From contig OY782041.1 in the NCBI GenBank assembly GCA_963677595.1, forward strand, positions 1,056,001 through 1,120,000: a stretch of 64,000 nt of DNA, in the 5' to 3' direction. Below the pieces are notes generated by a model. That model worked only from the letters and a program-made list of their open reading frames with translations. It did no database searches and had not been told where the DNA came from. The DNA is from Spirochaetia bacterium. GTDB taxonomy: Bacteria; Spirochaetota; Spirochaetia; CAKZLE01. The position numbers and the translations under genes were made by a program. Below are positions 5,229 to 50,214 of the stretch, piece by piece (position 1 is the stretch's first letter; the number at the start of each line of letters is the position of its first letter).

Positions 5229-5855
5229 ATGACCCCATTCATCCTGTTCCTGGTCTCATCGCTGTTGGTCATCATCGCACCGGGACCCGACATGATCTAT
5301 ACCGCGAGCCGCGGCATCATGTACGGACGATACTATGGGGCCGTCTCAGCCCTCGGGGTCTCTACCGGCCTGCTGATGCACTCCACGGTCGCTGCCCTGG
5401 GACTGGCACTGGTCCTGCGGAACATCCCGGGACTCTTCACCGGCATCACCCTCATCGGCGGGGGCTACCTCATCTATCTCGGGTTCCAGACGATCAGGAG
5501 CAGAGAGGACCTTAGCCTGGAGGCAGGAGGGGAAACTGCCCGTCTCATAGACTGCTACCGCCAGGGGTTCATCTCAAACTCCCTCAACCCCAAGATCGTC
5601 ATCTTCTTCCTCGCCTTCCTCCCCCAGTTCGTAACCAGGGATGGTATGCATGCAAACCTTCAACTCTTCGTCCTGGGACTCATATTCACCCTAATCACCG
5701 CGGCACTCTACGCCGCACTCGGGGTATTTGCCGGTACGGTAAGCCTGTATGTGAAGAGGAACCCTGCGGTGATCAGGATCATAACCCTCTGCTCAGGGCT
5801 GATCCTCATTGGGTTGGGAGGCTATATGGTAGTGCACGGGATATTCCTACAGTGA
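5229..5855 (+). CDS. LysE/RhtB family amino-acid exporter
   Basis: IAPGPDMIY, NSLNPKIVIFFLAFLPQF; hydrophobic; divergent from Lrp regulator; GAGGAGG RBS. Confidence 0.9.
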   Translation: MTPFILFLVSSLLVIIAPGPDMIYTASRGIMYGRYYGAVSALGVSTGLLMHSTVAALGLALVLRNIPGLFTGITLIGGGYLIYLGFQTIRSREDLSLEAGGETARLIDCYRQGFISNSLNPKIVIFFLAFLPQFVTRDGMHANLQLFVLGLIFTLITAALYAALGVFAGTVSLYVKRNPAVIRIITLCSGLILIGLGGYMVVHGIFLQ

Positions 5856-7022
5856 ATCCAGCAGTGACACCTTCCTAAGGTCATCGATGAGGAGTTTCTG
5901 CTTCGCAGGGAATGCATCAAACAGGGTCTTCTGTTTATGGTTCATCGTTGAGAAGTACTTTGACTCGATGAGGATACCGTCCCCTGTCAGGAAGTCGATC
6001 TCATTACCCCCCTCATAGAGGTAGTACACATCCTTCCTGGCTTTGAGCTTCAGGTAGATATAGTTCTCGAAGTAGCTCCCCAGGTCCCGTTCCCCGTTGA
6101 ACAGGTACTTGATGCCAAGGTCGCAGGCATAGAGCTTCTTCGGGGAGATGCGCTTCTCATTCGTCTTCCCCCATCGCTGTACCGTATGGACCAGGTAGGT
6201 CGACTCGAAGTAGGCAAGATACCTTCTTGCCGTGTCAGGGGAGATCCCCAGTATGTTGGCCACTTTGTTGATGCTTACCTGCTTGTCGCTCCGTTCCATC
6301 AGGAGCACGAAGAAATCCCTCAACAGCTGATGGTTCTTCAGCCCGTGATACGCCGTGATATCTTTCTGGATGATATCATCGACTAAGGAGTTCAGGTATT
6401 CCCTGCTTGGATGGAGAACATGCTCAGGTAAGCCGCCGTATCGGAGATACTCCCTGAAGTACGGCTCATTGAGCTGACCGTCCCGCTGCTTGACGGTGAT
6501 GTTCCGAAACTGCTTGAACTCCTCGAAATCGAGGGGCTCAACCTCCACCACTAAGGAGCGCCCGGTGAGATATGCCTTCCGGTCCAACAGCAGGGAACTC
6601 GATGAGGATGAGGCGAATATCTTGACCGGGTACCGGTCATTGAGGTTCTTCAGCTGCTGATGGTACTCCGGCAGTGAGGAGATCTCATCGAGGAATAAGG
6701 TAAGTTCCCGGTCTACCGGGAACTGGTGGACCTTCCTGAACTGGGAGACGATCTCATCCAGGGAGAGTCCCCTGAGCAGGAAATCATCCAAGCTTATATA
6801 CAGGATTGCCTTCGCCTCTGTCCCGCTCCTGATCAGGTCCTGGATGACCAGCTTCATGAGGGTGGTCTTGCCGATCCGGCGCAGCCCCGTAAGGAAGGTG
6901 ATCGACCTGCTTGAGAGCTGCTCTTTCAATCGTTCCAGATAGGAATCACGGGAGATGATACCAGGTAATGAGAGATCCCTATCCTCCCACCAGGGGTTAT
7001 ACTGATAGAATAATCCTTCCAT
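5847..7022 (-). CDS. AAA_14/DUF4143-type ATP-binding protein (paralog A, GLRRIGKT subfamily)
   Basis: YNPWW, Walker A GLRRIGKT, Walker B LFLDE, SSSSS, LTGR, GGLPE, KLYACDLG, FENY, EIDF...IESK. Confidence 0.88.
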   Translation of the reverse strand: MEGLFYQYNPWWEDRDLSLPGIISRDSYLERLKEQLSSRSITFLTGLRRIGKTTLMKLVIQDLIRSGTEAKAILYISLDDFLLRGLSLDEIVSQFRKVHQFPVDRELTLFLDEISSLPEYHQQLKNLNDRYPVKIFASSSSSSLLLDRKAYLTGRSLVVEVEPLDFEEFKQFRNITVKQRDGQLNEPYFREYLRYGGLPEHVLHPSREYLNSLVDDIIQKDITAYHGLKNHQLLRDFFVLLMERSDKQVSINKVANILGISPDTARRYLAYFESTYLVHTVQRWGKTNEKRISPKKLYACDLGIKYLFNGERDLGSYFENYIYLKLKARKDVYYLYEGGNEIDFLTGDGILIESKYFSTMNHKQKTLFDAFPAKQKLLIDDLRKVSLLDSL

Positions 7023-7029
7023 GGCTTAA

Positions 7030-7116
7030 CTATACGATATCATCGTATAGTTTTCAATTTTTTTATACGATACCATCGTATACTTTTAGCCATTTCTATA
7101 CGATGTCATCGTATAG
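7030..7116. repeat. Three palindromes TATACGAT-N3-ATCGTATA at 33-bp period upstream of ATPase A
   Basis: Cores start at 7031, 7064 and 7097. Confidence 0.9.
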
Positions 7117-7117
7117 T

Positions 7118-7729
7118 CTATAACAGCACCTGCCTGATGAGCGAGAAGGCTATCACCCACATGATGATCCCGATCCCTATATCAAGCAGCTTCCAGGCTT
7201 TCGGGTTCCTGAAGACCGGGGCAAGCAGCCTGCCCCCGAGACTCAGGCTGAAGAACCAGATGAAGGAGGCAGTGATCGCTCCCAGACCGAACCAGAGGCG
7301 TGCTGCCTCCTCATACTGTACGCTGATGCTCCCGATGAGGACCATGGTATCGAGGTAGACATGGGGATTGAGCAGGGAGACTGCCAGAGTGAAGAGGACT
7401 GCCGCCCTCAGGTCCTTAGGACCGCTGCGGTCCTCCTCCATGGTCTCCCTTGAGAGGCTCGCCCGGAAACTCCTGAAACCATACCAGAGGAGGAAGGCCG
7501 CCCCGCCGATGGAGGCTGCGTCTGTGAGGACCTCGCTCGATGAGAGCAATGCCCCTACCCCCAGCACACCGGCCGAGATGAGGACTGCGTCGATGATGCT
7601 GCAGATCAGCGGGATGATGAAGGTATGCTGCTTCCTTACTCCCTGCGATAACACGAAGGCATTCTGCGCCCCGATCGCGATGATCAGGCTAGCCCCCAAT
7701 GCCATCCCCTGTCCGTATACTGCTGTCAT
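7118..7729 (-). CDS. argO: ArgO/LysE amino-acid exporter
   Basis: LIIAIGAQNAFVLSQG, LLNPHVYLDT; divergent from an ArgP-like regulator. Confidence 0.85.
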   Translation of the reverse strand: MTAVYGQGMALGASLIIAIGAQNAFVLSQGVRKQHTFIIPLICSIIDAVLISAGVLGVGALLSSSEVLTDAASIGGAAFLLWYGFRSFRASLSRETMEEDRSGPKDLRAAVLFTLAVSLLNPHVYLDTMVLIGSISVQYEEAARLWFGLGAITASFIWFFSLSLGGRLLAPVFRNPKAWKLLDIGIGIIMWVIAFSLIRQVLL

Positions 7730-11042: not shown

Positions 11043-12521
11043 ATGACTTTGGAACAGATCAAGAAACTGCTTTCTCTTGGCGAAAATCAACACATTGAGT
11101 TCAAGTCCTCCATACGCAATCTTGACGGCTTGGGAAAAACTGTTTGCGGATTCCTGAATAAAGATGGCGGGTATGTGATTTGCGGTGTGACCGAGAAGGG
11201 AGAGATCATCGGAATTGATGATTCACATGATGCCCTCACTAAACTTGAGCAGTATTTGATTGAACATATCTCCCCGAAAGCGTTCGTTGCTGTTCAAGCT
11301 GAGGAATTGGATAAAAAGCTCGTACTTTCCATTGAGGTACCATTAGGTAACGATGTCCCATATGCTTTCAAAGATGTTATATATATACGTTCCGGAGAAC
11401 TCACACAGGTAGCCACGACCCAGATTATTCGCGATATAGTGATGCGTCATCAAATCGAGCCTGAACGCTGGGAACGCCGGTTTTCCATTGCTGATGTCGA
11501 GGAACATATCGACATACAAGAGGTAGGAGCGACGGTGTCAGCCGCTGCAAGTGTGCGAAGGGTGTTGTTTCGAGATGAAGGGAACCTCTCCATGGTCTTG
11601 GAAGATTTCTCGGTTGCTCGGTATGGGCGCTTAACGAACGGTGGAGATGTTCTTTTTGCTACGAACCCAGCCATCCGATTACCACAGACTCGAATCAGAG
11701 CTATGCGCTACAGCTCAGATAAAACTGGCGACAAATTCAGTGACATGAAGTCTTTCGAAGGACCGCTGTACCGTATTTTTGAGGATGCCTACTCATTTAT
11801 CATTCGCAACACTCCAAGTATTTCTACCTTCATCAAAGATAACCCTAACCGCTATGATGCTCCTCTATATCCTGAAGAAGCGGTACGCGAGGCGTTGATC
11901 AACGCTTTAGTACATCGCGACTATAGTGCAGCATCTGGAGGGGTCAGCATCCATGTGTATCCCAAACGGCTGGAAATATGGAATTCAGGGTCACTCCCAG
12001 ATGGAATAACCGAACAGAGCCTGCTCAAAGGTCAAATCTCAATACTTCGAAATCCTGATATCGCCCATGTCTTATATCTGCGGGGGCTCATGGAAAAAGC
12101 TGGCCGTGGTAGTGTGCTCATGGTGCAGAAATGCCTCGAACATGGATTACCAGCACCATGTTGGAAATCGGATCCAAAACTGGGAGTAACGGTGACATTC
12201 CTCACCCCGGAAGTCACCCCGGAAGTCACCCCGGAAGTCACCCCGGAAGTCACCCCGGAAGTCACCCCGGAAGTTACCCCGGAAGTTACCCCGGAAGTCC
12301 TGAAACTCTTGAAGCACCTTTCGGGTGCAATGAGCCGGTGGGATCTGCAGGATGCCATTGGCCTCCGGGATGCAGAGCACTTCCGGAAATCCTATATAAG
12401 ACCAGCTCTTGAGATCAATGCTATCGAGATGACGATCCCAGAGAAACCCAAGAGCAGCAAACAGCAGTACCGTATCAGTACGGTTGGCGAGCAGCTATTG
12501 GCACAGTACAGGAAGAAGTAA
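11043..12521 (+). CDS. AlbA_2/Schlafen-like DNA-binding domain + HATPase_c_4 (RecG C-terminal-like) + C-terminal winged helix protein
   Basis: GENQHIEFKS, CGFLN.DGG...CGV, YPEEAVREALINALVHRDY, EIWNSG, RNP.IA, EKAGRG, C-terminal TIPEKPKSSKQQYR. Confidence 0.85.
   Translation: MTLEQIKKLLSLGENQHIEFKSSIRNLDGLGKTVCGFLNKDGGYVICGVTEKGEIIGIDDSHDALTKLEQYLIEHISPKAFVAVQAEELDKKLVLSIEVPLGNDVPYAFKDVIYIRSGELTQVATTQIIRDIVMRHQIEPERWERRFSIADVEEHIDIQEVGATVSAAASVRRVLFRDEGNLSMVLEDFSVARYGRLTNGGDVLFATNPAIRLPQTRIRAMRYSSDKTGDKFSDMKSFEGPLYRIFEDAYSFIIRNTPSISTFIKDNPNRYDAPLYPEEAVREALINALVHRDYSAASGGVSIHVYPKRLEIWNSGSLPDGITEQSLLKGQISILRNPDIAHVLYLRGLMEKAGRGSVLMVQKCLEHGLPAPCWKSDPKLGVTVTFLTPEVTPEVTPEVTPEVTPEVTPEVTPEVTPEVLKLLKHLSGAMSRWDLQDAIGLRDAEHFRKSYIRPALEINAIEMTIPEKPKSSKQQYRISTVGEQLLAQYRKK
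12204..12299 (+). repeat. 8 x 12-bp coding tandem repeat ACCCCGGAAGTY (TPEV x8)
   Basis: Units start at 12204 and every 12 nt up to 12288. Confidence 0.95.
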
Positions 12522-12674: not shown

Positions 12675-13745
12675 CTAGCCCTGGCCAAGCAGCAGGTCTA
12701 TCAGCTTCGTATTGAGATAATAATTACTTCGTCCAAGTCTCAGTTTTTCCAGGACCCCCTGGTCAACGAGAAGATCCAGATACCGTACAGCCGTGATTCG
12801 GGAAACATCCAATTCAGTCATCACGAACCCGATCCTGGTGTAGGGATGGTTGAACAGGTTGTTCAGCAGTTCATGCCGGTATTTTCCTCCCAACAGATCA
12901 CGAAGCTTGTCCTTGGTATTCGCCATGAGGGATACGATGCCTTTTACCAGGACGATCGATTCATGTGCAGTCTGCCTGACCCCCTCGAGGAGGAAGAGGA
13001 TCCATTCCTCCCAGCTCTGTTCATCCCGGACTCCCTGCAGCAATCGATAGTATTCCTGCTTGTTCTGGATGATATAACGACTCAAGTAGAGTATCGGAAG
13101 ATCCAGCAAATCCTTGCTTACCAGATAGAGTATGTTGATGATCCGCCCCGTCCGGCCGTTCCCGTCATAGAACGGGTGGATGCTCTCGAATTGGTGATGA
13201 ATGATCGCCATCTTGATCAGGGGATCCAGGTCAGAGACCGACTCATCATTCATGAACCGTTCCAGGTTAGCCATATGTCTCTCAATATCGGCCCGGTTCT
13301 GGGGGGGAGTATACACGACCTTTCCATCCTGATCCTGAAGTGTCGTACCGGGAACACTCCTGAAGCCAGCCCTGTTCTGCTCCAGGATCTCCTGGATCCC
13401 TATGATCATCGAGGTAGTGAGCAGGCTGGTTCTTCTCATCCTGCTGAACCCTGTTTTTAGGGCTTCAGCATATTGCAACACCTCTTTTGTCGCACTGGTA
13501 ATCCTCACATGCTGCATACTCAGGTCAGCTTTAAATAGCTCATCCTGGGTTGTGGTGATATTCTCAACGGCGGAACTGTCTTTTGCCTCCTGCAGCGCCA
13601 AGGTGTTGATGAGAATACTCTCATTGGGGATCGTGTGAGCTATCCCTTTGAGTTCTGCAAGTTTTGCACGAGCCTGGATGAGTTTCTTCATGATAGGAAC
13701 CGTTTCAAACGAATAGGTCAGAGGCAAATCTGGTATGGCATACAT
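12675..13745 (-). CDS. Fic family protein (SoFic-like, with Fic_N and C-terminal HTH)
   Basis: HPFYDGNGRTGR catalytic motif; SSAVENI inhibitory-helix-like motif. Confidence 0.92.
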   Translation of the reverse strand: MYAIPDLPLTYSFETVPIMKKLIQARAKLAELKGIAHTIPNESILINTLALQEAKDSSAVENITTTQDELFKADLSMQHVRITSATKEVLQYAEALKTGFSRMRRTSLLTTSMIIGIQEILEQNRAGFRSVPGTTLQDQDGKVVYTPPQNRADIERHMANLERFMNDESVSDLDPLIKMAIIHHQFESIHPFYDGNGRTGRIINILYLVSKDLLDLPILYLSRYIIQNKQEYYRLLQGVRDEQSWEEWILFLLEGVRQTAHESIVLVKGIVSLMANTKDKLRDLLGGKYRHELLNNLFNHPYTRIGFVMTELDVSRITAVRYLDLLVDQGVLEKLRLGRSNYYLNTKLIDLLLGQG

Positions 13746-13767: not shown

Positions 13768-13881
13768 ATATGTATAGATTTCTCTTCTTTCTATACACAT
13801 ATTCATTATATGTATAGTTTTTCCCGATTTCTATACATATCATGAGGAATATAGGAAGAAATCGGGGAAAACTGATACATA
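13768..13881. repeat. Operator-like inverted/direct repeats upstream of fic
   Basis: ATATGTATAG-N13-CTATAC(A/C)AT twice at 40-bp period (13768, 13808), plus an inverted copy AGAAATCGGGGAAAACT near 13857. Confidence 0.7.
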
Positions 13882-19710: not shown

Positions 19711-19930
19711 GGTCTCCCTCCTGATAATCTACAGTATGTACTTCCTATCATACAGGATTATGCATTATGAGGCTATCACCTGTGATCAGGTCCGATCCCT
19801 CGAATCTTGCAGTATCCCCTATACTGCATCACAAGCACCATATACCTATATCCTGTGAAAGCAGCTAGTTTTGAATCAAATTGACCTGAATCCTGTTTGT
19901 AGTAGATATACAAACCTAGGAGGAACCCGC

Positions 19931-21022
19931 ATGTTTAAAGAGATAAAGTACGGGAACAGCACCTTACTGCCGCTTACCAGCGACATCGTCTTCAAGGCGA
20001 TCTTCACCAAGGAGGAGAACAAGGACCTGCTGCTCTCCCTGCTTAACGCCTACCTCGACATCTCCCCGAAGAGCCCGGAGGACATCACGATCATGAACAC
20101 GGAAATAGAGCGGGATTACCCCGATGACAAGCTCTTCCGCCTTGATTTGCGGGTCAAGACCGCAGGCAACGAACACATCGATGTCGAGATCCAGGTCCGC
20201 AATGAGTTTGACATCATTCCCCGCAGCCTGCATTACCTTGCCCGCCTCTACTCAAGCCAGATCAAGAGGGGAGATCGATATGCTGAGGCAATTCCGAGAC
20301 ACGGAATTGCCTTTTGAAGTTTTTGCATCGTTGATCAAAAACTTCTGATTCAGGTTAGGAATTTCAGGATGAAATTCCCAAGCCGAAAGCGGCCTGCCGA
20401 TTTCGGCAAAGCCATAACTCTCAACTTTCTGTGCTATAATCTGATAGAGACGGAAGAAGAGAAGAACGAAGAGAACTACGAAGAGAAGCCGGATACGACC
20501 AGGTCCTATATACGGCACATCACCTTCCATGACCGGGAGACGAAAGAAGAGTTCACGGACCTCATGGAGATGGTCTTCGTGGAACTTAAGCGTATGGACC
20601 ATGATGATCCCGAAAGCCTGAGGGATCAGTGGACGAGGTTCTTCAGGGCTGAAGACTTGGAAGGGTTGGAAGAACTCTCCCATCAGAACAGGATCTTCGA
20701 GGAGGCGATGAAGCAGATGGTACATGTAAGTGCGGATGAAGAGCTCCGGTATGCATATGTCCGGAAGAGTATGGCGGAACTCGATGAAGCTGCCCGTGAG
20801 GCGGCACTCGTAGAGGATACTGCTACTACATACCTGGCTAAAGGTATTGAGATTGGTGAGAAACAAGGCATAGGAATTGGTGAGAAAAAAGGCAAGGAAG
20901 AAGAGAAGGAAGCGACAGCAAAACGTATGCTGGTTAAGGGGATGTCTCTCCCTGATATCGCCGATATCACAGGTTTGAGCGAAGATGCCATCAAGGAACT
21001 CCAGGATAACCTGGCTGATTGA
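19931..21022 (+). pseudogene. Rpn (YhgA-like) PD-(D/E)XK nuclease interrupted by a 114-nt in-frame insert carrying a TGA
   Basis: SDIVFKAIF, RLDLRV...DVEIQ, RSLHY..RLY in part 1; FVELKR, GIEIGEKQG..GEKKG...AKRML..G...IADITGLS in part 2. Both parts are in the same frame. Confidence 0.85.
20287..20400. mobile_element. 114-nt multi-hairpin insertion element (MITE/REP-like) inside rpn
   Basis: Hairpins at 20287-20311, 20316-20345, 20358-20378 and 20382-20393; flanked by TGCTGA/TGCCGA; removal restores GDRYADFGKAI. Confidence 0.65.
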
Positions 21023-25996: not shown

Positions 25997-26102
25997 AACG
26001 TTCCTCTCATACTCATTGCCTACTGTGTACCCCGAAAGCAGGCAGAGATGCAACCCCGGGCAATCGGGGGGAGGTATCAGTCATGATTGTTCTTGAGAAG
26101 CC

Positions 26103-26240
26103 TCAACCAGGGACAGATGGCTGCTCGAGCAGCCACCTGTATGCAGGGACGATATGGATGGTCCTGCCTGGCTGTGCATCCTCGATATCTCCAGCCTCAT
26201 AGGTTGTCACGATCCATGACTCCTGTACATCGGCTAAGGC
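26103..26240 (-). pseudogene. 3' remnant of a DUF4143-type ATPase gene
   Basis: Translates ALADVQESWIVTTYEAGDIEDAQPGRTIHIVPAYRWLLEQPSVPG*, resembling the family's C-terminal I..VP.W.WLL tail; no start codon. Confidence 0.5.
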
Positions 26241-26241
26241 A

Positions 26242-26269
26242 AATAGTTTACAATATTTTGTAAACTATT
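26242..26269. repeat. AT-rich palindrome
   Basis: AATAGTTTACAA-tatt-TTGTAAACTATT. Confidence 0.8.
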
Positions 26270-26330
26270 CTTACTTATCTTCCAAAATCTTGGAAACTAC
26301 TGCGATCCTATGCCAGGATTGCTTGCCAGC

Positions 26331-27602
26331 TCAATCCTTCAGGCACCCGAGGGGGACGATAAGCACCCCGTCATCCCGGCGATACGCAAACTCACCGCCG
26401 GTGAGGACCATCAGGAAGGAGGGTTCCCGCATCTTTGAGGTATTCACCTTTGCCTTCAGTGCGAGGAGATGTTCAGCTGCTTCCTCGATCTCCCGGGATC
26501 CGAGCTTCACCTCGACTGCAGCCCAGCGTCCGTCATTGAGACACACTACCGCATCTGACTCGAGCCCCGAAGCATCCCGGTAGTGGAACAGTTCCCCATC
26601 CGCAGCTTCGGCATAGATCCGCAGGTCTCTCATGCAGAGCGACTCGAACAGGAACCCGAAATAGGTGAAATCATCCAGGAGACGTGAATAGGTGAGTCTC
26701 ATAACAGAGACTGCAATGGAGGGATCAACAAAATGGCGTTTCGCTGTAGTTCTTACCGCCGTCTTGGAACGCAAGGCAGGATTCCAGGCAGGGAGATCCT
26801 CCGTAACGAAGATACGATTGAGAGCTGTCAGGTATTGGCTGATACTCTTATCAGAGAGTGTCGTATCCACGTCTCCTAATGCAATATCATTTCGGATAGT
26901 CCTGATCGTTGCTGGTGTCGCAATATTCCTGGCAAGGGACCTCATCAGTGCCCTGACCCGCTGGGGATTCTTCTCAACTCCGTCAACACGAGAGATATCT
27001 GAGTTGATGATCGATTCAACATAGTCTATACCATGACGAAGGGCTGCATGCTCCTCCTCCCCTACTGATGCTGGCCATCCACCTCTGGCTATGGCTCTTG
27101 CGATCCCTTCGATAGAGAGCCCTGAAACAGCCTGCACATCGGTATTGCCGTCAAAGAGCTCTTGCAGGGAGATAGTACCGTCCGACTCCAATGATTCATA
27201 TAGACTCATTGGGCGCATCCTCAGCCGAGATATCCTCCCCGTGCCAGTATGTCTGAGCTCCTCTGCAGGAGGCACTGTCGAGCCGGTCAGGATGAACTGG
27301 CCGGCTAAACCTCTTTTATCAACCATGAAGCGGACTGCATCCCAGAGGACCGGGGCAGTCTGCCACTCATCCAGCAGCCTGGGGGTCTCCCCTCGGAGAA
27401 GCAGGGACGGCATGGTATCAGCAGCCTTCAGATACGACTGGATCCTGTCTGGATCCTGCATGAACAAGGTACTGGAAGCAACCTGCGATGCCGTCTCTGT
27501 CTTACCGCACCATTTGGCTCCCTCAATGAGAACCGCACCGCTGGCAGCAAGCCTCTCCACTAGAAGTCTGTCAGCTATCCGACTGAGATATCTTCGTTCC
27601 AT
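26331..27602 (-). CDS. AAA_14/DUF4143-type ATPase-nuclease (paralog B)
   Basis: GAKWCGKT, RLLDEWQ, FILTGS, GTGRI, RGGWP, KRHFVDPS, GFLFE, ESDAVV...EVKLG. Confidence 0.9.
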   Translation of the reverse strand: MERRYLSRIADRLLVERLAASGAVLIEGAKWCGKTETASQVASSTLFMQDPDRIQSYLKAADTMPSLLLRGETPRLLDEWQTAPVLWDAVRFMVDKRGLAGQFILTGSTVPPAEELRHTGTGRISRLRMRPMSLYESLESDGTISLQELFDGNTDVQAVSGLSIEGIARAIARGGWPASVGEEEHAALRHGIDYVESIINSDISRVDGVEKNPQRVRALMRSLARNIATPATIRTIRNDIALGDVDTTLSDKSISQYLTALNRIFVTEDLPAWNPALRSKTAVRTTAKRHFVDPSIAVSVMRLTYSRLLDDFTYFGFLFESLCMRDLRIYAEAADGELFHYRDASGLESDAVVCLNDGRWAAVEVKLGSREIEEAAEHLLALKAKVNTSKMREPSFLMVLTGGEFAYRRDDGVLIVPLGCLKD

Positions 27603-27632
27603 CCATGCCTCCACACCTTGATCCTACCACCA

Positions 27633-28983: not shown

Positions 28984-28996
28984 AATTTCCACCTCT

Positions 28997-30289
28997 CTAT
29001 ATGAGATTATCATGAAATGTGGGAATTGTCGAATATCCATTGTGTGATTTGGCGCTATTCCATTGTGGGAATTGGCGGTAATCTATTATGGTGCCAAGCC
29101 TGGCGGCCCAGAAGGGGATCAGGGAGAACCCGTTCAGGAACGTCAGGTTCCCGTACCGGTCTATCCAGGGATTCGAGAAGATCTTCACCGTCCAGTACCT
29201 GTTCCGGAACTGCGGTAGGAAATGCCGGTGTTCGTTCGTACTCCGCATCTCAGCCGTCAGATCCGTTCCCAGTGCCTCTACGATATGAACAGCAGCCTTC
29301 CTGCTCTCACATTGCCTTAGCAGGTCGCGGAAGTCGAGCCGGTACCAGCCATCCTCCAGGAGGCTGCCGCTCCTGGTCACGACACGTACATCCATGACCA
29401 TCAGGCCGGGCTCCGGAATCCTCCAGTCCCTGATCCTGTGGATGGTCTCCGTCCGTCCCACCTCCGGGAGCTGGGGCTCCTCCCCCCACAGGATCCTCGC
29501 TCCCTTTCCTGTATGCATGGCGGTCATGATGAGGGTGTTCCCATATTCCATCGTGATGCGGTATCCCTCCCCGGCCTCCCGGTTCAGCAGGGCAGGCTCA
29601 CAGCACTGCCCTATGAGTCCGACCAGGCAGGAACTGAGGTTCCCGATCCTCCGGTGCTGGGCGATGAACCTGTCCACCAGGAGGGAGTAGTCAGGATCAC
29701 ATCTGTAGAATGAGACCTCACAGTCATAGGTATAGTCACTGTCTGCATAGTACCATCTGATATCCTCCGGCAGTTCGAACCAGGGGTCCCGGGCCCCGCT
29801 GTTGAAGGCAGCTCCTGCCTGCCGGTACAGCTCCAGCCGGCTTATATCTTCCTGCTTGTACAGACTCAACAGGCTGAGATGCTTCTGTCTGATGAATACC
29901 GGGACCCCCTGGTACACCAGAGCCCGCCAGCACCCGTCAGGGGTGAACATGACTTGCTGCTCCGCTGCCCAGGTGACCAGCACCGGGAGCCCATGGAGTC
30001 TCTCCTGCCCCAGGCACCACAGGGCGAACTCCTCTGACGTACCGCTCCTGGGCGGGAACCACCTTGACCCGGGACAGATGCGGATCACACGATACCCGGG
30101 AGTATCATGTGGATCCCATGGTTCGTCAGTCCTGAAGATGATCGTCTTCCCGTACTTGCTCCGATCGAGCACCTCCAGCATCAGGGTCGCGTCATCGAGC
30201 TGGTCATAGGATCCGACCCGCCAGAACCAGTTATTCTCGAACCATTCAATATACTCCTGGTTGCTCTTGCTCAGAACAGGTAGTAGCAT
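28997..30289 (-). CDS. Hypothetical protein (430 aa); 3' end reads through the repeat array
   Basis: Long ORF with host-like codon usage; no recognisable motif. Confidence 0.6.
   Translation of the reverse strand: MLLPVLSKSNQEYIEWFENNWFWRVGSYDQLDDATLMLEVLDRSKYGKTIIFRTDEPWDPHDTPGYRVIRICPGSRWFPPRSGTSEEFALWCLGQERLHGLPVLVTWAAEQQVMFTPDGCWRALVYQGVPVFIRQKHLSLLSLYKQEDISRLELYRQAGAAFNSGARDPWFELPEDIRWYYADSDYTYDCEVSFYRCDPDYSLLVDRFIAQHRRIGNLSSCLVGLIGQCCEPALLNREAGEGYRITMEYGNTLIMTAMHTGKGARILWGEEPQLPEVGRTETIHRIRDWRIPEPGLMVMDVRVVTRSGSLLEDGWYRLDFRDLLRQCESRKAAVHIVEALGTDLTAEMRSTNEHRHFLPQFRNRYWTVKIFSNPWIDRYGNLTFLNGFSLIPFWAARLGTIIDYRQFPQWNSAKSHNGYSTIPTFHDNLI
29016..29084. repeat. Three degenerate 23-bp tandem units upstream of ATPase C
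   Basis: AATGTGGGAATTGTCGAATATCC / ATTGTGTGATTTGGCGCTATTCC / ATTGTGGGAATTGGCGGTAATCT. Confidence 0.8.
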
Positions 30290-31380
30290 AGTACACCTCC
30301 ATGCTTCTCGACCACCGGCTCCAGCCAGTCGAAGATATACTTCAGGGTCGGCATCATGGTCTCCCAGGCTGTTCCCGGTCGCTGGTAGAGCTCGGACCAG
30401 CCATACTTGTTGAAACAGTGCAGCCAGGTATCATCCAGCACATGCCGCTGGTAGTCCGGGGCACACAGCGTCTCGAAGAAACTCTCCCAGCTGTCATGGT
30501 CCCTCATCACATGCCAGAACTCGATCAGCTTCTTCCAATCCCTCCTGCACTCCTCCAGGATCGGGGTCTCGAACTTCCATTCCGGGGATATGCTCATGCA
30601 GAGCGATTCTGCCATGTCCAGGGCCCCGATGGTACAGGGAAGGAACATCATACAGTCCCTGGTCTCGTGAGGCGAGCATTCCAGTTCCTTATAGTCCAGG
30701 CCTGGTACCGCGACGAAGTCTGCCATGTGGAACGGTATAGCCATCCGGGGTTCACGCATGATCCCCGGATGCCAGCTGTACTGCCAGGCAGGGTCCATCA
30801 CCGTCAGGTTCATCCACTTCAGGTCCAAACAGCCACGGTACCCATCATCGAAGAACTGCAGGCCGAGGAAGCGACAGCGTTCGTCCTCATACGTCTCCAG
30901 CTGCAGGCGCTCCGGCAGGTACTCGATCGGGGCGACATACTGGATGAGGTTCTCCTCAAGGAAGTGGATCTCGGTGATACGGCTGTCGATGAGCTCGCTG
31001 TAGTGATACCGATCCCACGTACCATCACGAAGGGTGCTCCTGATACCCTGCAGGCACGCCTTCACCAGTGGCAGTCCGCAGTGGTCGACGTCGGGGACCC
31101 ACAAGGCAGCACAGCCTCCTTCCGGGCCACCAGCTCCCCAGTCAACTGCGAAATCGAAGAGCAGCATACCCCTGCTGAACAGCAGGTATTCCAACGACGT
31201 CTTACTGGAATCCGCCGCTTCACACCGGCCGCATAACGACATACGGACCGGGATCCTTCCATGGGCCTTGAGGACCCGCCCGATCAGGCGGACCTCCTCC
31301 AACAGGTATCTCGCGGCTTCTAGCGGGGTCTTGAGATCGTGCCACCCCAGTCCTCCGGGCACAGGTATAGTGTTGTTCAT
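30271..31380 (-). CDS. Hypothetical protein (369 aa, Trp/Cys-rich)
   Basis: Long ORF with AGGAGG RBS; no recognisable motif. Confidence 0.7.
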   Translation of the reverse strand: MNNTIPVPGGLGWHDLKTPLEAARYLLEEVRLIGRVLKAHGRIPVRMSLCGRCEAADSSKTSLEYLLFSRGMLLFDFAVDWGAGGPEGGCAALWVPDVDHCGLPLVKACLQGIRSTLRDGTWDRYHYSELIDSRITEIHFLEENLIQYVAPIEYLPERLQLETYEDERCRFLGLQFFDDGYRGCLDLKWMNLTVMDPAWQYSWHPGIMREPRMAIPFHMADFVAVPGLDYKELECSPHETRDCMMFLPCTIGALDMAESLCMSISPEWKFETPILEECRRDWKKLIEFWHVMRDHDSWESFFETLCAPDYQRHVLDDTWLHCFNKYGWSELYQRPGTAWETMMPTLKYIFDWLEPVVEKHGGVLCYYLF

Positions 31381-31557
31381 AGTTTTCCCTCCTGGATCAA
31401 TTAAAGGAGGAGGGTCAGGTGGTTGTATCTTGTGTTTCGAAGATACTCATGCAGTCAGGGTAGCATGGATCCCGACTGCTGTACAGCCTGTTTCTTTTCT
31501 CACTATCAGCCATTGCCCCCCTTCCCCATCCAGCCCCCTGAAGGTAGAATGGGAAGC

Positions 31558-32362: not shown

Positions 32363-34195
32363 TCAGTAATCGAGCAGGATCCCAGTATAATGGCTCTGCC
32401 GGTCTGCAAACTTGTCATCCCCGATATCGATGAAGTACCGCTTCCCGTAGACCCTGAATTTCATGTACATATCCTGGGTCTCAGACGTGCATAGAGAGAT
32501 ATAGGGATCACGCCACACCTCCTCGAAGGTCTCCCCATCTCTAGTGGAGAGGACGAACGACTGCCCGGTCCGGTAGTCATCGGTCGTGATCCCGGCACGG
32601 GCAAAGGGGATGAAGACCGGGGAGGTCTCTGTCGGCTGGATCATCCTCATCCCGAAGTTGACCGGGGCATAGGGCTGGGGATCATCGAACTCGAACTCGT
32701 AGGCTAGCTCGAGGGTGGGGTATCCATCCTCGGCACAGACTTCACGGTCGATCCGGTACACCCCCTGGTTGACGGTGCTGTCATGGGTGAGCAGGATGCA
32801 GTCAGGCATGGCGAAAAAGCTCAGTGACTGGGTGATGCCTGCAACCCCTCCAGTTGGGGTGTAGCTCGAAGTCTCGATATGGTCCCAGGTCTCCCCGTGA
32901 TCATCGGTCCACCCGATCGTCCGGGATCCCTCGTTATCGCCGGTGGTGATCCAGATCCTCGGGGTCCCGTCGATCCCGTAGGGGTCGTAGAGGCAGCCGT
33001 GGATATGGCAGCCCTTCCAGGCCTCATCGTCGGGGAAGTACCCATCAGGGGCATCCCAGACATCGAAGATCTCCTCCCAGCTCTCCCCGTAGTCGTCCGA
33101 GTAGTAGACCTTTCGCGACCAGGTATGCAGGGGTACCCAATCCGTGGTGTTGTTGTATTCGATAAGCCCGTATTCCGAGAAGACGAGATGCTCCCCCGAG
33201 ACCGACAGTCCCCACTCGGGCATCGGCTGTACATGGTAGCTGGTATACTCCAGTACCTGCTCCCAGGACCGCTGGCCGCCGCTGCTCTTCCACAGTCCGG
33301 TCTCACTGCAGACACCCCGCTCGCAGAAGTCAAGGAACTCTTCCAGTGACGGAGCTTTCCCATCCGGGTAGTCTGCCGTGACATCCACTACCAGGGTCCC
33401 TTCCCAGGTGATCTCCTCCCAGCCTTCAGTGGCCCGGTTGACGACCTGGATATCGAGAGAATTAGTGACGGCAGTTACCTCCTGTCCAAGGATCTGTCGT
33501 CCCTCTGTAGAGAGGAATGCCCATTGATAGGAATCAACATCATCAGGGTCAGTCGTTGTCTGCAGGTAGACATATTCGTACCCAGGATTCAGCTCCTGTT
33601 CCGTGTCAACCATCACTGCGACATAATACTGGTGACCTGCAGTCACCTCGACATACTTACTCATATGGCCCCATTCGGCATTGGCAGTGAAATGCTGTCC
33701 TTCCCCGTCCACCGAGCAGCTCCCGAGGGAGTAGCCAGCCAACCCGTCCGCAATACCGTCACTGTCGGTGTCGATGACATGGTGGGGTTCATAGCAGAGG
33801 TTGGCTACATGCCCGTACCGGGCATCAGTCCCCCACTCATCGATGTCGAGCTCGATGCTGTGCCAGGGGTTATCGAACTCGTAGCCGCTTCCCACGGTCA
33901 CGAGGAGCTCCCCGTCTTCAAGCAGCCGGACGTCCTCTATGTAATCATCGAAGGTATGGAGATAGGTCATCTCCCGGAAGTTCTTCGTCTTCAGGAGCAT
34001 AGTGCCGTCATGCAGGTCACGGTCCTGGACCACATAAAAGGTCCCGGTCTCCTGGTCGATCTCCATGATACCCTTGAAGGTGTTCTCATTGGGATCCTTC
34101 GGGATATAGACATCATCGATATCCTGGAAGAAATCACAGCCCATGAAACTCACCAGGATAATGAACAGGGACAAACAGAACAGACTTTTTTTCAT
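32363..34195 (-). CDS. Lipoprotein with BNR/Asp-box repeats (beta-propeller glycosidase-like) and an inserted domain
   Basis: Lipobox FMG-C; YSDDYGESWE, WTDDHGETWD, STRDGETFE; HIH...YDPY...WITTGD. Confidence 0.7.
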   Translation of the reverse strand: MKKSLFCLSLFIILVSFMGCDFFQDIDDVYIPKDPNENTFKGIMEIDQETGTFYVVQDRDLHDGTMLLKTKNFREMTYLHTFDDYIEDVRLLEDGELLVTVGSGYEFDNPWHSIELDIDEWGTDARYGHVANLCYEPHHVIDTDSDGIADGLAGYSLGSCSVDGEGQHFTANAEWGHMSKYVEVTAGHQYYVAVMVDTEQELNPGYEYVYLQTTTDPDDVDSYQWAFLSTEGRQILGQEVTAVTNSLDIQVVNRATEGWEEITWEGTLVVDVTADYPDGKAPSLEEFLDFCERGVCSETGLWKSSGGQRSWEQVLEYTSYHVQPMPEWGLSVSGEHLVFSEYGLIEYNNTTDWVPLHTWSRKVYYSDDYGESWEEIFDVWDAPDGYFPDDEAWKGCHIHGCLYDPYGIDGTPRIWITTGDNEGSRTIGWTDDHGETWDHIETSSYTPTGGVAGITQSLSFFAMPDCILLTHDSTVNQGVYRIDREVCAEDGYPTLELAYEFEFDDPQPYAPVNFGMRMIQPTETSPVFIPFARAGITTDDYRTGQSFVLSTRDGETFEEVWRDPYISLCTSETQDMYMKFRVYGKRYFIDIGDDKFADRQSHYTGILLDY

Positions 34196-34511
34196 GCAGA
34201 TACCCATACAAGGTGTGTATCCCACACCTTCTCATTGAGATTGTTTCCTATACTCTCTACTCATATCTGCGTTTGTACTGACGTACATCACCATGGTATC
34301 ACCCGATGATACTGTTAACAAGGCACATACACCCTTTCTGGATAGAAAAACCACTCTCTAATACTCAGATTCTTTTTTCCTGCTCCCTACCCCCCTGCTC
34401 CCGCTGGTTTGGCTTCTATATGCGGGTGCCCCGATCACTTCCATTGGTATGGTAACAGGTTCTATGGTACTATAGCTGTATACTGACACGAGAGGACGGC
34501 ACAGCTGGAAT

Positions 34512-42593: not shown

Positions 42594-42668
42594 CATTCGG
42601 TTAAATTCTCTCATTCCATTCGGTCATATTATCTGTTTCCATTCGGTTAGATTCTCTCTTACGGAACA
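42594..42668. repeat. 75-bp block of three 23-bp-period CATTCGG units (downstream copy)
   Basis: 68/75 identical to 44009..44083 by manual alignment. Confidence 0.9.
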
Positions 42669-42669
42669 A

Positions 42670-43935
42670 TCACGGTCTCAATGCCGTGATCGGTACCACG
42701 CAGACACCATCTGGTCTGCGGTAGGCTGCGCTTGAGAGGCCGCAGATCACACAAAGAGTAGTTGCCGGACGTTCGAATCTCTTGTTTATGTCCAGGAGCT
42801 TTGCAGCAGCCTCGTCAATCTGGTTCGCCCCCAATTTGATCTCAAAGGCGGACCAGCTTCCATCCGGAAGTTCTACAACCGCATCGATCTCATTATTCTT
42901 GTAGTCCTGGTAATGCAGGAGATTGGCACCGAAAGATTGCGCATAGATCCGGAGATCCCGTTCACATAAAGCCTCGAATAGAAATCCAAACGTCCTCAGA
43001 TCCCCGATCAATCTTCTTTCATCAGTGATGCCCAACAGCGAACATGCAAAAGATGGATCGACGAGATGGCGTTTCTCTGCCTGCTTGATGCGAAGGGAGG
43101 AACGTAAGGCAGCCGCAAATGGTTTCTGGTTCTCGATGATGAACAGCTTCCCTAAGATATTGAGGTACGCAGCGATGGTATCCTCATCGATGGTTAAATG
43201 CTCAACTCCTTTCATGTCACTCTTCAGACGTCTCATGGATGCTGTAGTACTCTCGTTCCGTGCAAGAGAGCGAAGCAGAAGACGCATCTTCGCCTCATCA
43301 CGCACATTGTCATCTACTTTGGCGATATCATTAGTCACCACATTCTCTAAGTACTGTGCTGGGACCTTACAGGCATCTTCCGTCGATAAGCCCAGGCTGC
43401 CGGGCCAGCCTCCCCTCAGGATATAGGATGCCAAAGCTTGAAGACTCACTTCGCCAGTCATGCTGTTCTCAAGCGTACCGGCACATAGCTCTTGCAAGGA
43501 TATGTTTCCAGCGGAATCTCCCGACTCGAACAACGACATAGGCATCATGCGCAGTCGTGCTATACGACCAGTACCACTATGCATGACCCCCTTGTGTGCA
43601 GGGGTGGCGCTGCCGGTAAGGATGAACTGTCCCTTCAAGGTGCTCTTATCGACGGTGAACCTTACCGCATCCCAGAGCGACGGCACTTCCTGCCATTCAT
43701 CAATCAGACGAGGCTGCGTACCTGTAAGAGCCATAGACGGATCTATCTGTGCGAGCTGCCTGTTCTGAAAATTTCTATATGGGTCTTCGACAAAGAACTC
43801 ACTTTGAGCATGCTTCTGCCCAGTCCAGGTCTTCCCGCACCACTTTGGGCCCTCAATGCAGACTGCCCCGAATACCCTGAGGTACTGCTCGATTGCCGTG
43901 TCTATGACACGTGGTCTATAGAAACTAGTGTCCAT
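42670..43935 (-). CDS. AAA_14/DUF4143-type ATPase-nuclease (paralog D)
   Basis: GPKWCGKT, RLIDEWQ, FILTGS, RGGWP, EIDAVV...FEIKLG. Confidence 0.9.
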   Translation of the reverse strand: MDTSFYRPRVIDTAIEQYLRVFGAVCIEGPKWCGKTWTGQKHAQSEFFVEDPYRNFQNRQLAQIDPSMALTGTQPRLIDEWQEVPSLWDAVRFTVDKSTLKGQFILTGSATPAHKGVMHSGTGRIARLRMMPMSLFESGDSAGNISLQELCAGTLENSMTGEVSLQALASYILRGGWPGSLGLSTEDACKVPAQYLENVVTNDIAKVDDNVRDEAKMRLLLRSLARNESTTASMRRLKSDMKGVEHLTIDEDTIAAYLNILGKLFIIENQKPFAAALRSSLRIKQAEKRHLVDPSFACSLLGITDERRLIGDLRTFGFLFEALCERDLRIYAQSFGANLLHYQDYKNNEIDAVVELPDGSWSAFEIKLGANQIDEAAAKLLDINKRFERPATTLCVICGLSSAAYRRPDGVCVVPITALRP

Positions 43936-43985
43936 GTACATGCTCCTACACAAAGAGTACTACAAAAGATTTGCATAAGCAATGG

Positions 43986-44083
43986 TATTCGGTTAAATTC
44001 CCCGATTTCATTCGGTTAAATTCTCTCATTTCAATCGGGCATATTCTCTGTTTTCATTCGGTTATATTCTCTCTAACGGAACA
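43986..44083. repeat. Four 23-bp-period ATTCGG units upstream of ATPase D
   Basis: Units at 43986, 44009, 44032 and 44055; ends ACGGAACA like the downstream copy. Confidence 0.9.
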
Positions 44084-44086
44084 TCT

Positions 44087-47212: not shown

Positions 47213-48016
47213 TCAGTAAGGAGTATCAAACAGGTTTAGCGTATCCAGGAATGACCTGAAGTTCACGATCATAGAGGCTCTCTCCCGGCTGAACATGAGG
47301 TGCCCGACATCTTTCTGCTTATTCACAAGATCCACTTCAGATGACCGAAGCTCCAGAGCCTTCTTTAGTTCCTGTCCGTCATGTATCCCATGCCGTATAC
47401 TGAGGAATCGGTAATCCGGTCTTGTCTGCCCCAGGAGGAACATCACATCATAGAAGTCCCTTCCCTTCCCACGATCCAAAAGAGCCGATATCTTCATGGC
47501 ACAGAGAGTTTCGTCAGGCGGTACGGGTATCGGAAAGAAGAACCCGCAACTCTGCACGAAAGCCGGTACCGTCTGGTACGGGATTCCCTGATCCTCCATC
47601 TCGACTTTTATAAGAAACCTCTCATTCCTGTACCCGCTCAGCTGCAGCCCGAACAGCAGCTGAGGGAAATAGAGGGACCTCCTGAACGCCGTAAGGCCAT
47701 CATGCTCCCGCTCTTTCGGCTCAACCTCATAGCCCAGATAGCCAAGATGCCTCACTACCCCGTCAGTCATGGCGAGAAAATCATCTTTCGACATCCCCTT
47801 GCAGTCGAAGTCAAGGTCTTCAGAAAACCTTTCAATTCGCTTGATCAACCGGAGATTTGTTCCCCCGATGAATGAGAGACGTGAGATAAACGGAGAGTTC
47901 GAGAGGTACTCAAGGATCTGGCACTGGATATACTCCTTGAGCATCAACTTCTGGAAACCTGTATCATCCCTGATTGAAGCAGGGAAGAAATTCTTGATGG
48001 CAGCTATCTCGATCAT
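47213..48016 (-). CDS. abiEii: AbiEii-type nucleotidyltransferase toxin (type IV TA)
   Basis: FIGGTNLR...RFSEDLDF, K..A...R..GRDFYD. Confidence 0.88.
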   Translation of the reverse strand: MIEIAAIKNFFPASIRDDTGFQKLMLKEYIQCQILEYLSNSPFISRLSFIGGTNLRLIKRIERFSEDLDFDCKGMSKDDFLAMTDGVVRHLGYLGYEVEPKEREHDGLTAFRRSLYFPQLLFGLQLSGYRNERFLIKVEMEDQGIPYQTVPAFVQSCGFFFPIPVPPDETLCAMKISALLDRGKGRDFYDVMFLLGQTRPDYRFLSIRHGIHDGQELKKALELRSSEVDLVNKQKDVGHLMFSRERASMIVNFRSFLDTLNLFDTPY

Positions 48017-48651
48017 AGGTATACCTCCTTCATCATTGACAGCCTCCGCCTGAGGCTGTCTGACCCGAACCTGGTAAGATATGCCTCTAAACGCTCAGCA
48101 TCAAGCTCGTCCTGCATGAAATCAACATCAAAACGCAGCTCCTGCATATCAGCTTCACTACGGAAGTGCGGATTCAGGTACAGGAAGTCAAGAATCGCCT
48201 TCTCTGGGGTTGCCAGCATGATACTCCACCCCTTGGTACGAGCGGAAGGCTCAATGGTATACCCGAACATCAATTCTGGTTTGACGGACCGGTAGACGAA
48301 CTCCCCGAGATCGTTGTGGAAGCTCTTCGTCTTCCTTGCCGTCACGCTGGTAACAGGGATGACGGCTTCCGGGATGATCCCGAAATAGGAGAGGGCTTTT
48401 TCAAGGCTGATATACGAGGGAGCATATATCTTGTTGGCAGCAAAGAAGGGAGTATCACCATTCTGCTTATGGGCAGGGAACATATAGAACCCCTGCCGGA
48501 GCCTGATGATCTTTCCCTGCCGCTCCCAGCGCCCGAGATTGTTCCTGTCGAACCCTTCATTCCATACCCGTACCTGGTGGATGGAGAAACAGCCGAGAGG
48601 AAAGAAGAAATCCCTGAATTCGAGAAACGAAATATTCTTTTTCATTTCCAT
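48013..48651 (-). CDS. abiEi: AbiEi-type antitoxin
   Basis: IRLRQGFY, PSYISLE.AL..FG.IPE, TSVT, ATPEKAILDFLY; ATGA overlap with the toxin. Confidence 0.85.
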   Translation of the reverse strand: MEMKKNISFLEFRDFFFPLGCFSIHQVRVWNEGFDRNNLGRWERQGKIIRLRQGFYMFPAHKQNGDTPFFAANKIYAPSYISLEKALSYFGIIPEAVIPVTSVTARKTKSFHNDLGEFVYRSVKPELMFGYTIEPSARTKGWSIMLATPEKAILDFLYLNPHFRSEADMQELRFDVDFMQDELDAERLEAYLTRFGSDSLRRRLSMMKEVYL

Positions 48652-48681
48652 AATACGTCAATTATACAGCATTATGGAAAT
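48644..48681. promoter_or_regulatory. Inverted-repeat operator of the abiE operon
   Basis: ATTTCCATAAT-N16-ATTATGGAAAT overlapping the start codon. Confidence 0.65.
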
Positions 48682-48737
48682 ATAACAAGTATTCTACAGG
48701 CGATATGGTCAGGAGGAAAGCATCCTCCAACCATGTC

Positions 48738-50015
48738 TTAATCCCTCAATGCCGTGATTGGTATCACATAAACACCATCGGGTCGGAGGTAGGAGGCGTT
48801 GGTAAGACCGCAGATCACTCCAAGAACCGTCGGAGGCTTCCCCTTCGGATCGCTTTCGATTCCAGACTTGATCTTCAACAGGCTCTTTGCTGCATCATCC
48901 ACTTGGTTTGCACCAAGTTTGATCTCAAAGGCACCCCATCTGCCATCCGGCAGCTCCACGACAGCATCGATCTCATTGCCCTGGTAATCCTGGTAATGGT
49001 ACAACTTTGCATCATTGGCTTCTGCATAAATCTTCAGGTCACGCTCACAGAGTGCCTCAAACAGAAATCCCAAGGTCTCCAGGTCTGAGAGCAGGGCCTC
49101 TTCCGTTGTCCCCAACAGGGCACACGCCAGGGATGGATCGCAAAAATGATGTTTGACTGATTGTTTCACACGTACCGAAGAGCGTATACGCGGACTGAAA
49201 GGCAGCTGGTTATCAAGGAGGAAGAGTCGCTCAAACACATTCAGGTACTCAGCTACCGTTTCCACATCTATATCATCATCGTCTATTTCCTTAATATCAT
49301 GCTTCAGGGTCCTGTTCGTGGCTGTGGTACTTTCGTTCCTTGCAAGGGACCGTAACAACAGACGTACCTTCTGCAGGTTCCGCGAACGTCCATCTACCCT
49401 ATTGATATCTCTCTCTATGACTGCCTCTATATATTGCTTTGGCAGCAATCGTGCTAACTCAGGATCCATGCCAATGTTCTCCGGCCATCCCCCACGAATA
49501 ATGAGCCGGATGATCTCCCGAAGATCAACATCCCCGGTAAATACTGATCTGGCACTTTCTGCAAATATATCCTTAAGGGAAACGGAACCCGAAGAGACCC
49601 CCATCTCATAGAGAGACATGGGGCTCATGCGCAATCTGGCGATTCGTCCTGCCCCGCTGTGAAGAATACCGTAATCCGTTGGAGCAGAAGACCCAGTAAG
49701 GATGAACTGCCCCGGTTCTCCCCGTTCATCAACCGCATAACGAACAGCATCCCAGATTGACGGGACTTCCTGCCATTCATCGAGCAACCGGGGAGTATCA
49801 CCATCTAGGATGAGGTAAGAATCCAGCAATGCCAATCTGCGATTGCTGAAATTGCCTACTGGTGCTCCAACATAGAAACTACTATTGCTATGGTGCAATG
49901 AGGTCATGGTCTTCCCACACCATTTAGGCCCTTCGATGCAGACAGCTCCAAACGCCCTGAGGTAGGTAGTTACCTTGTTGTCAATCAGTCGCGGCAGATA
50001 TTTCTTTCCATCCAT
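48738..50015 (-). CDS. AAA_14/DUF4143-type ATPase-nuclease (paralog E)
   Basis: GPKWCGKT, RLLDEWQ, FILTGS, SGAGRI, EIDAVV...FEIKLG. Confidence 0.9.
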   Translation of the reverse strand: MDGKKYLPRLIDNKVTTYLRAFGAVCIEGPKWCGKTMTSLHHSNSSFYVGAPVGNFSNRRLALLDSYLILDGDTPRLLDEWQEVPSIWDAVRYAVDERGEPGQFILTGSSAPTDYGILHSGAGRIARLRMSPMSLYEMGVSSGSVSLKDIFAESARSVFTGDVDLREIIRLIIRGGWPENIGMDPELARLLPKQYIEAVIERDINRVDGRSRNLQKVRLLLRSLARNESTTATNRTLKHDIKEIDDDDIDVETVAEYLNVFERLFLLDNQLPFSPRIRSSVRVKQSVKHHFCDPSLACALLGTTEEALLSDLETLGFLFEALCERDLKIYAEANDAKLYHYQDYQGNEIDAVVELPDGRWGAFEIKLGANQVDDAAKSLLKIKSGIESDPKGKPPTVLGVICGLTNASYLRPDGVYVIPITALRD

Positions 50016-50070
50016 ATATCTTTTCCTTATAGAAAATTATATCACAATAAAAATTCTAGTACAAGCCACT

Positions 50071-50214
50071 ACCCGACAGATTCATTAACTTCAATCCGAC
50101 AGATTCATTAACTTCAATCCGACAGATTCTTTAACTTCAACCCGACAGATTCTTTAACTTCAACCCGACAGATTCTTTAACTTCAACCCGACAGATTCAC
50201 TAATCTCAACCCGA
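50071..50214. repeat. Six and a partial tandem copies of the 23-bp unit AYCCGACAGATTCWTTAACTTCA upstream of ATPase E
   Basis: Units at 50071, 50094, 50117, 50140, 50163, 50186 and a partial at 50209. Confidence 0.95.

Follow-up and report, generated by a model that had tools for sequence, protein, structure and literature searches.

Phased repeat arrays as candidate private operators of AAA_14+DUF4143 ATPase-nuclease genes in a Spirochaetia bacterium

Five ATPase-nuclease genes and the arrays beside them

The window considered here is a stretch of 64,000 nucleotides (nt) from a Spirochaetia bacterium (assembly GCA_963677595.1, contig OY782041.1, positions 1,056,001-1,120,000 of the forward strand), in which five genes, A to E, are each preceded by their own array of phased repeats. 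All five lie on the minus strand, and each combines in one single gene matches to AAA_14 and DUF4143 above the Pfam cut-offs with a match to the PADLOC hidden Markov model (HMM) PDC-S01 (best E-values 1e-61 to 1e-71), in agreement with a sequence-only reading that had described five intact minus-strand genes of this type. Gene A (5847-7022, 391 aa) carries the signature GLRRIGKT, gene B (26331-27602) GAKWCGKT, and genes C (27721-28983), D (42670-43935) and E (48738-50015) GPKWCGKT. The longest open reading frames (ORFs) coincide with these limits for A and E and extend further upstream for B (26331-27614), C (27721-29040) and D (42670-43953); the position of the ribosome-binding site (RBS) favours the later starts (27602, 28983 and 43935, respectively), and the GTG start of C is backed by its ortholog in the genome G002. 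The closest relatives of D are found in Spirochaetia, chiefly Sphaerochaetaceae; sequence searches of the PDB and of NCBIfam gave no match, and an ESM Atlas search returned AAA_14+DUF4143 clusters only.

The proposal of an own array upstream of each gene is borne out by Tandem Repeats Finder (TRF), with a period of 33 at 7030-7117 and of 23 at 27633-27710, 29018-29091, 43987-44072 and 50071-50214. Array A (7030-7117) consists of three ~20-bp palindromes (TATACGATG..ATCGTATA) repeated every 33 bp, array B (27633-27719) of four 23-bp units with the core TCGGAAGT at 27709, 27686, 27663 and 27640, array C (29016-29091) of 23-bp units with the core TTCCCACA, array D (43987-44083) of four 23-bp units with the core AACCGAAT, and array E (50071-50214) of seven cores TCGG(G/A)T in exact 23-bp steps, its unit being part-palindromic. 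The earlier list of arrays was right for these five, but overlooked a second copy of the D array (42594-42668, three units) directly after the stop codon of D, identical at 66 of 75 nt to the start of the upstream one. A start of the array close to the preceding stop codon, also claimed at first, holds at A, B, D and E but was rejected as a general rule: the distance to the previous same-strand stop is at most 15 nt in 22 of 122 homologous loci, with a median of 151 nt.

The predicted sigma70 promoters overlap or abut the arrays of their own genes. At A, B and C the last repeat lies within a TTG/TCG-N17-TAnnnT motif (TTGAAA-17-TATAGT at 7029-7057, TTGATA-17-TAGGAT at 27649-27621 and TCGACA-17-TAATCT at 29032-29004, all on the minus strand); the last unit of B and C falls in the promoter spacer, and the final palindrome of A covers both spacer and -10. 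The mRNA of A is probably leaderless, because the ATG stands 7 nt beyond the final base of the predicted -10. At D and E, the motif directly follows the array (TTGCTT-17-TACTCT at 43954-43982, minus strand, one unit past the array and in phase; TTGTAC-17-TATAAT at 50036-50064, minus strand). Array C is located inside the 3' end of an ORF (28997-30289, 430 aa) that reads through both the array and the predicted promoter and has no Pfam, PADLOC or NCBIfam match; the ORFs upstream of it (30271-31380 and 32363-34225) are likewise without assignment.

Repeats also occur without a family gene. An orphan pair of 32-bp-period palindromes stands directly after the stop codon of B (26232-26300), and 39- or 33-bp arrays without an intact family gene, possibly scars, are found elsewhere in the genome (G000:C1 1907596-1907702, 1910635-1910728 and 4022365-4022440); a tblastn search for family remnants beside orphan arrays found none. 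Palindromes with a 40-bp period and resembling the ATPase operators are present at 13768-13840, upstream of a Fic/SoFic gene (12675-13745), so that repeated operators may be common among conflict genes bearing a winged helix-turn-helix (wHTH). The rest of the window holds many AbiE, Fic, YefM-YoeB, AlbA-RecG, Rpn-type and RadC genes, while a tRNA search of the window found none. The ABC2 neighbour of D has no close ortholog among 40 relatives. An Rpn-type PDDEXK_2 gene (19871-21022) is split into two ORFs; another probable Rpn-type gene, judged by its N-terminal sequence (G000 326567), has a 33-bp repeat upstream; and an AlbA-RecG-wHTH gene (11043-12521) contains a 12-bp coding repeat in eight copies (12202-12299) and has an 85%-identical copy elsewhere in G003.

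Period, promoter phase and recognition helix in paralogs and homologs

An HMM search of the genome detected 59 relatives, 53 of them above 100 bits, the closest of which share 64% identity. Upstream periodicity scoring at least 15 was observed for 17 of these 53 genes; among the 3197 other genes it occurs at 25, and among 1093 with AT-rich upstream regions at 15. A best period of 23 at a score of at least 10 was observed for 7/53 versus 3/3197. Nine of the ten 23-bp arrays scoring at least 15 in the 4.33-Mb genome lie beside family genes. On a FastTree phylogeny of 52 paralogs (one without the Walker A pattern was left out), array period follows the protein clade: 23 bp in all seven G(P/A)K(W/G)CGKT proteins, 31-34 bp in 12 of the 13 members of the long GARQ-type clade (16 bp in the thirteenth), and 39-41 bp in eight of nine members of the G.RR.GKS subclade (six of them at p<=0.05), with no common period in one further clade. 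A crude palindrome measure gives 5-12 for the 32-40-bp arrays and 4-5 for the 23-bp ones. A 504-bp duplicate (G000:C1 933745-934248 and 954034-954537, 98% identical) spans the upstream region and start of one paralog's stop-to-stop frame, and the same array with its flanking genes near both contig ends (9512-9585 and 4323007-4323080) suggests terminal redundancy of the assembly.

Each motif of the window, expressed as a position weight matrix (PWM), reaches its top score at its own array. The D motif also matches the downstream copy, the E motif the array of E's nearest paralog, and the B motif one lone outside site that scores near B's weakest unit (22.8 versus 24.3). A regulon was considered and rejected because each motif scores highest at its own array, no additional strong sites being present in the genome.

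The 23-bp period extends to other genomes. Among 228 clade members collected from GTDB, metagenome, viral and relative loci, 7 without the Walker A pattern and 12 with short upstream DNA were dropped, and 173 were kept at <95% identity, a sample skewed to relatives of D. A 23-bp period at a score of at least 10 was found upstream of 147 of these 173 homologs, as the sequence-only reading would predict; block shuffles showed it in 1 case of 346, and regions downstream in 8 of 159. It was also detected in 16 of 300 neighbouring genes, 14 of which are on the other strand of the locus and probably share the same array as the family gene. Relatives of gene A are rare (2 of 300 genomes of the phylum, none in viral contigs and none in plasmids at 1e-40), so that the 33-bp case rests on A, its ortholog in G002 and the other clades of this genome.

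The arrays are also in phase with the promoter motif, 23 bp being the sum of a -35 hexamer (6) and a spacer (17). With the register set from the repeat core only, which was possible at the 66 of 147 loci where one of the core patterns occurs twice in phase, the best -10 lies in register at 40 loci (10.4 expected), and TAnnnT is found in the first or second slot beyond the last repeat at 47 of 66 loci, compared with 6 of 145 internal slots. An earlier count of 92/147 loci in phase was set aside, its register having been seeded from the promoter and thus being partly circular.

What, then, could read these repeats? The AlphaFold model of D (pLDDT 90.5) comprises, numbering from 43953 and with limits read from the model, an AAA+ domain (~7-215), a wHTH (~220-297) and a PD-(D/E)XK nuclease (~319-427). 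Residues 220-297 are assigned to a winged helix with a putative recognition helix at 257-269, from secondary structure and structural matches. The best of these matches is the archaeal AAA+ ATPase 2qen (Z 15.0, root-mean-square deviation (rmsd) 4.8, 256 residues aligned), followed by 2fna (Z 14.2, rmsd 4.6, 256 aligned) and, in Foldseek, by NLR/STAND and Cdc6/Orc1 proteins. The Walker A/B, arginine-finger and nuclease residues are intact: K41, D85, E86, R130, E371 and K373 are invariant in 173/173 homologs, and E327 and D357 are present in 172/173, so that the ATPase and nuclease sites are near-invariant with or without a detected array. This applies to the clade of B to E, the P-loop and nuclease residues of A being intact as judged from its own sequence.

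Residue 258 stands at the start of this helix, which begins SDKS in B, HMNT in C, DEDT in D and DVET in E, and across lineages the first helix turn tracks the repeat core. EDT/DDT goes chiefly with CCGAA, in two distant subclades; ANT/GNT/SNT goes with CTGAA, VET with TCG(G/A), RNT with GCTCA, KNT with GGTCA and DKT/DKS with CGGAAG. In 65 disjoint nearest-neighbour pairs, the core changed in 23 of the 24 with different residues at position 258 and in 14 of the 41 with the same one, and this residue tops 308 columns in predicting core change (identity-stratified family-wise p 0.008). Across lineages, spacer base 9 too is predicted best by this residue (0.51 bit, the next column reaching 0.30).

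Taken together, each array is probably a private autoregulatory operator of the adjacent ATPase-nuclease gene. Cognate binding and autoregulation are supported indirectly, by the private motif, the phase lock with the promoter and the covariation with the recognition helix; since the repeats at the promoter change with one residue of the predicted DNA-reading helix, each protein probably binds at its own gene and restrains it. It would read its own repeat through the winged-helix domain and sit on the phased sites that span or flank its predicted promoter, so that little of a probably harmful nuclease would be made, by repression rather than activation. Orc1/Cdc6 and DnaA load cooperatively through AAA+ contacts, and the AAA+ fold and fixed phase suggest that loading may be cooperative here too. 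The period would represent the footprint of the bound oligomer, additional upstream copies may add cooperativity or titrate the protein, and the nuclease might act in abortive defence.

Several observations weigh against this interpretation. A 14-member clade with GPRQSGK proteins in this genome has no common period, 26 of the 173 homologs have no 23-bp array at the threshold and retain all catalytic residues, and one (L282) of two more distant homologs of A has no array. The promoters are motif calls whose PWM weights follow the E. coli consensus, and the spacer of D and E carries no repeat, which makes occlusion less direct and activation possible. The sequence-only reading had proposed to ask whether unit sequence follows the middle, predicted wHTH, domain, and here the results diverge. 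The pair test agrees (p 0.008), with a core window (7-11) picked after viewing the data; single-state tests on independent pairs with treekit were not significant (median p 0.125-1 in six of eight tests, 7-12 pairs). When core positions 6-13 are summed, residue 258 is tied first at <70% identity, fifth at <60% and outside the top 12 at <50%, a cross-lineage score that is probably blurred by register shifts between clades.

Gain, loss and competing explanations

A broader hypothesis sees these loci as self-addressed one-gene elements, in which the protein would polymerise on its own DNA barcode, and the array would serve both as the off-switch of the nuclease and as the excision or recombination site of the cassette; the oligomer geometry of each clade would set the period, and a small helix code the sequence. 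This would explain array-bounded losses as well as the array copies flanking D, and we retain it as a minor possibility. A self-mobile one-gene element, whose array would be the cis end or integration site on which the ATPase loads while the nuclease starts excision, integration or homing, is unlikely, the evidence on it being divided. In D and the 11 homologs nearest to it (81-84% aa), DNA homology extends from array to stop codon, and flanks are common to 2 of 55 homolog pairs, as a travelling unit would predict. The neighbours scanned (81 of 98) are heterogeneous, with no fixed partner (5 paralogs, about 10 defence-type genes, the rest housekeeping, often so, or unassigned). Proteins combining an Orc/Cdc6 NTPase with a restriction endonuclease (REase) have moreover been linked to transposase ATPases (PMC10853773, in the part accessible). 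On the other side, recombinases or integrases are adjacent in 2 of 81 cases, plus one TnpB-like gene, and identity among the 53 paralogs reaches at most 64%, so near-identical copies are missing. No inverted ends were seen by eye at the junctions, although no dedicated inverted-repeat search was run. An integron or other integrative element, with a shared att site and a dedicated recombinase, fits poorly with motifs that differ per gene and with recombinases in 2/81 neighbours.

Comparison of filled and empty sites likewise gives a mixed picture. Three genomes of genus g36 are cleanly empty at the site: no array is present, and a 4-5 nt overlap, GGAG(A), falls at the RBS of the next gene; this single microhomology is the nearest thing to a target duplication, none being common to the sites. 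At a Mediterraneibacter site, where five loci are filled, G360 has lost an internal part of the gene, with array, promoter and both ends of the gene still in place, and G374 retains two repeats, promoter and RBS, the remaining empty loci being without array; as judged from these remnants, G360 and G374 are losses and not targets. In G374 (locus L289), the predicted promoter and RBS of the lost ATPase gene now stand directly before the downstream gene. A search within the Agathobaculum genus gave no clean filled/empty pair. Gene A and its array are absent from G001, where the next gene is broken too, while G002 has an A ortholog at the same site with a changed palindrome; orthologs of A and C, whose arrays have diverged along with them, are retained at 68% and 80% aa identity, respectively, which argues against mobility, as does the missing downstream array in most homologs.

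Sequencing runs of close strains (depths 3.8-6.2, X2 and X3 from one sample) provide further examples. Contigs of run X2 pass over both D (42607-44052) and C (27667-29036), each time breaking inside arrays at either end, and over E together with AbiE (47230-50185), here with one breakpoint in the E array; the same run also covers D at low depth. Pieces of X4 stop at the same D coordinates without bridging. Run X1 has an extra 23-bp unit at 43986 and a path without D's downstream array. In the window, D stands between direct array copies, with a stop-to-array-start joint as from circle integration; the sequence in which the three D alleles arose is compatible with circle integration, with tandem duplication and with direct-repeat recombination. 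In X2, B has decayed by four internal deletions, at odds with self-mobility. A depth-2 contig of X1 lacks the whole stretch 26059-31408, with B, C and the two ORFs upstream. The cassette is therefore patchy rather than fully syntenic, and array and gene travel together, as the sequence-only reading had envisaged for a minimal mobile unit, but several empty sites are deletion scars, and inverted ends, a fixed target duplication, a partner recombinase and near-identical copies were not found. Self-mobility is weakly supported because related strains lose the gene yet keep array scars.

Could the array instead be a DNA antidote or sensor, the stacked protein being inactive until the array is lost or a phage displaces the protein, upon which the released nuclease would kill the cell, as in addiction or abortive infection? 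This seems quite unlikely, even though it is compatible with autoregulation. Up to seven copies exceed what repression needs, copy number varies between strains (as in X1), the catalytic sites are intact, the fold is close to STAND switch ATPases, and the observed losses take the gene and leave the array; nevertheless, array-less clades and homologs exist, and plain repression fully accounts for the promoter phasing. Slippage duplication of a -35 plus spacer module, tuning promoter strength and read by no family protein, is very improbable: it would be consistent with 23 = 6+17, with the 40 of 145 internal slots that start with TTG and with strain-to-strain copy-number change, but would leave unexplained why the repeats covary with residue 258, why other clades have palindromic arrays of 32-40 bp and why 23-bp arrays are almost missing from 3197 other genes. 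That the arrays are transcribed guide or antitoxin RNAs (in the style of CRISPR, TIGR or type III toxin-antitoxin systems) is the least likely of these readings, since, despite possible read-through from upstream genes and folding better than shuffles in A, E and C (z -8.5, -3.9 and -2.3), the predicted promoters stand downstream of their arrays or are overlapped by them, D and B fold barely better than shuffles (z -1.5 and 0.1), folding in A and E follows from their palindromic or part-palindromic units, and neither an Rfam match nor a spacer-like variable region beyond about 10 nt was found.

Known systems and significance of private operators

The family itself is known, and all five proteins match it. 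PDC-S01, an ATPase fused to PD-(D/E)XK, is described as the fourth most common prokaryotic defence system, with the remark that most PDCs await validation (PMC12988326), as the single locus met most often in rumen genomes (PMC13356809), and as one of the untested candidates (10.1101/2024.01.29.577857), and the function of DUF4143/COG1373 is entered as 'Unknown' (PMC3424549), each as stated in the accessible part of the source. The defence role remains a PADLOC candidate label, and literature searches found no experimental work on PDC-S01. Nor did they find a description of the array-gene pairing, subscription papers and bioRxiv supplements (e.g. the tables of Payne et al.) being outside reach; arrays are without mention in the accessible parts of PMC12988326, PMC13356809, PMC3424549, PMC10853773, 10.1101/2024.01.29.577857, 10.64898/2026.10.19.760177 and 10.64898/2026.04.11.717937. 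The cis element thus appears to be undescribed, and the array is an added part here, no cis element, wHTH code or regulation being given for PDC-S01 (COG1373) in the literature found, as far as accessible.

Several known systems nevertheless offer parallels. Archaeal Orc1/Cdc6 with ORB boxes, DnaA boxes and plasmid Rep-iteron systems similarly combine AAA+ and winged-helix domains (Foldseek ranks 3-6, 1fnn and 2qby) with phased direct repeats beside the gene, and the autoregulation of initiator promoters resembles the one predicted here; unlike them, the present family has a C-terminal nuclease, 53 chromosomal paralogs against only 6 plasmid records at E<=1e-60, repeats phase-locked to a sigma70 motif, and no apparent replication origin. 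The archaeal STAND-like ATPases SSO1545 (2fna) and Paby2304 (2qen) are the best structural matches (residues ~3-308), but the match excludes the nuclease domain and identity is 14-16%. In type IV toxin-antitoxin systems, the AbiEi antitoxin, which likewise belongs to a defence locus and has a wHTH, probably represses the promoter of its own gene via repeated operators. The likeness lies in a wHTH protein with repeated operators at its own promoter, binding being predicted in our case, whereas here one gene encodes ATPase and nuclease in one chain, with head-to-tail arrays of up to seven units and a separate operator per paralog. The same domain logic, derived from transposase-type ATPases, is found in the Orc/Cdc6 NTPase+REase relatives of CR effectors (via PMC10853773, accessible part).

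If the arrays are private operators, they would allow dozens of diverged paralogs to coexist without cross-repression. For each family member they provide a DNA sequence as candidate ligand, together with a promoter and a residue-base code open to testing, and a private operator together with a residue code offers a direct way to test the family, one genome with 53 paralogs and three periods providing built-in specificity controls. Phage or toxicity results may mislead when such genes are cloned without their array or under a foreign promoter. These naturally diversified protein-operator pairs could also serve as orthogonal repressors.

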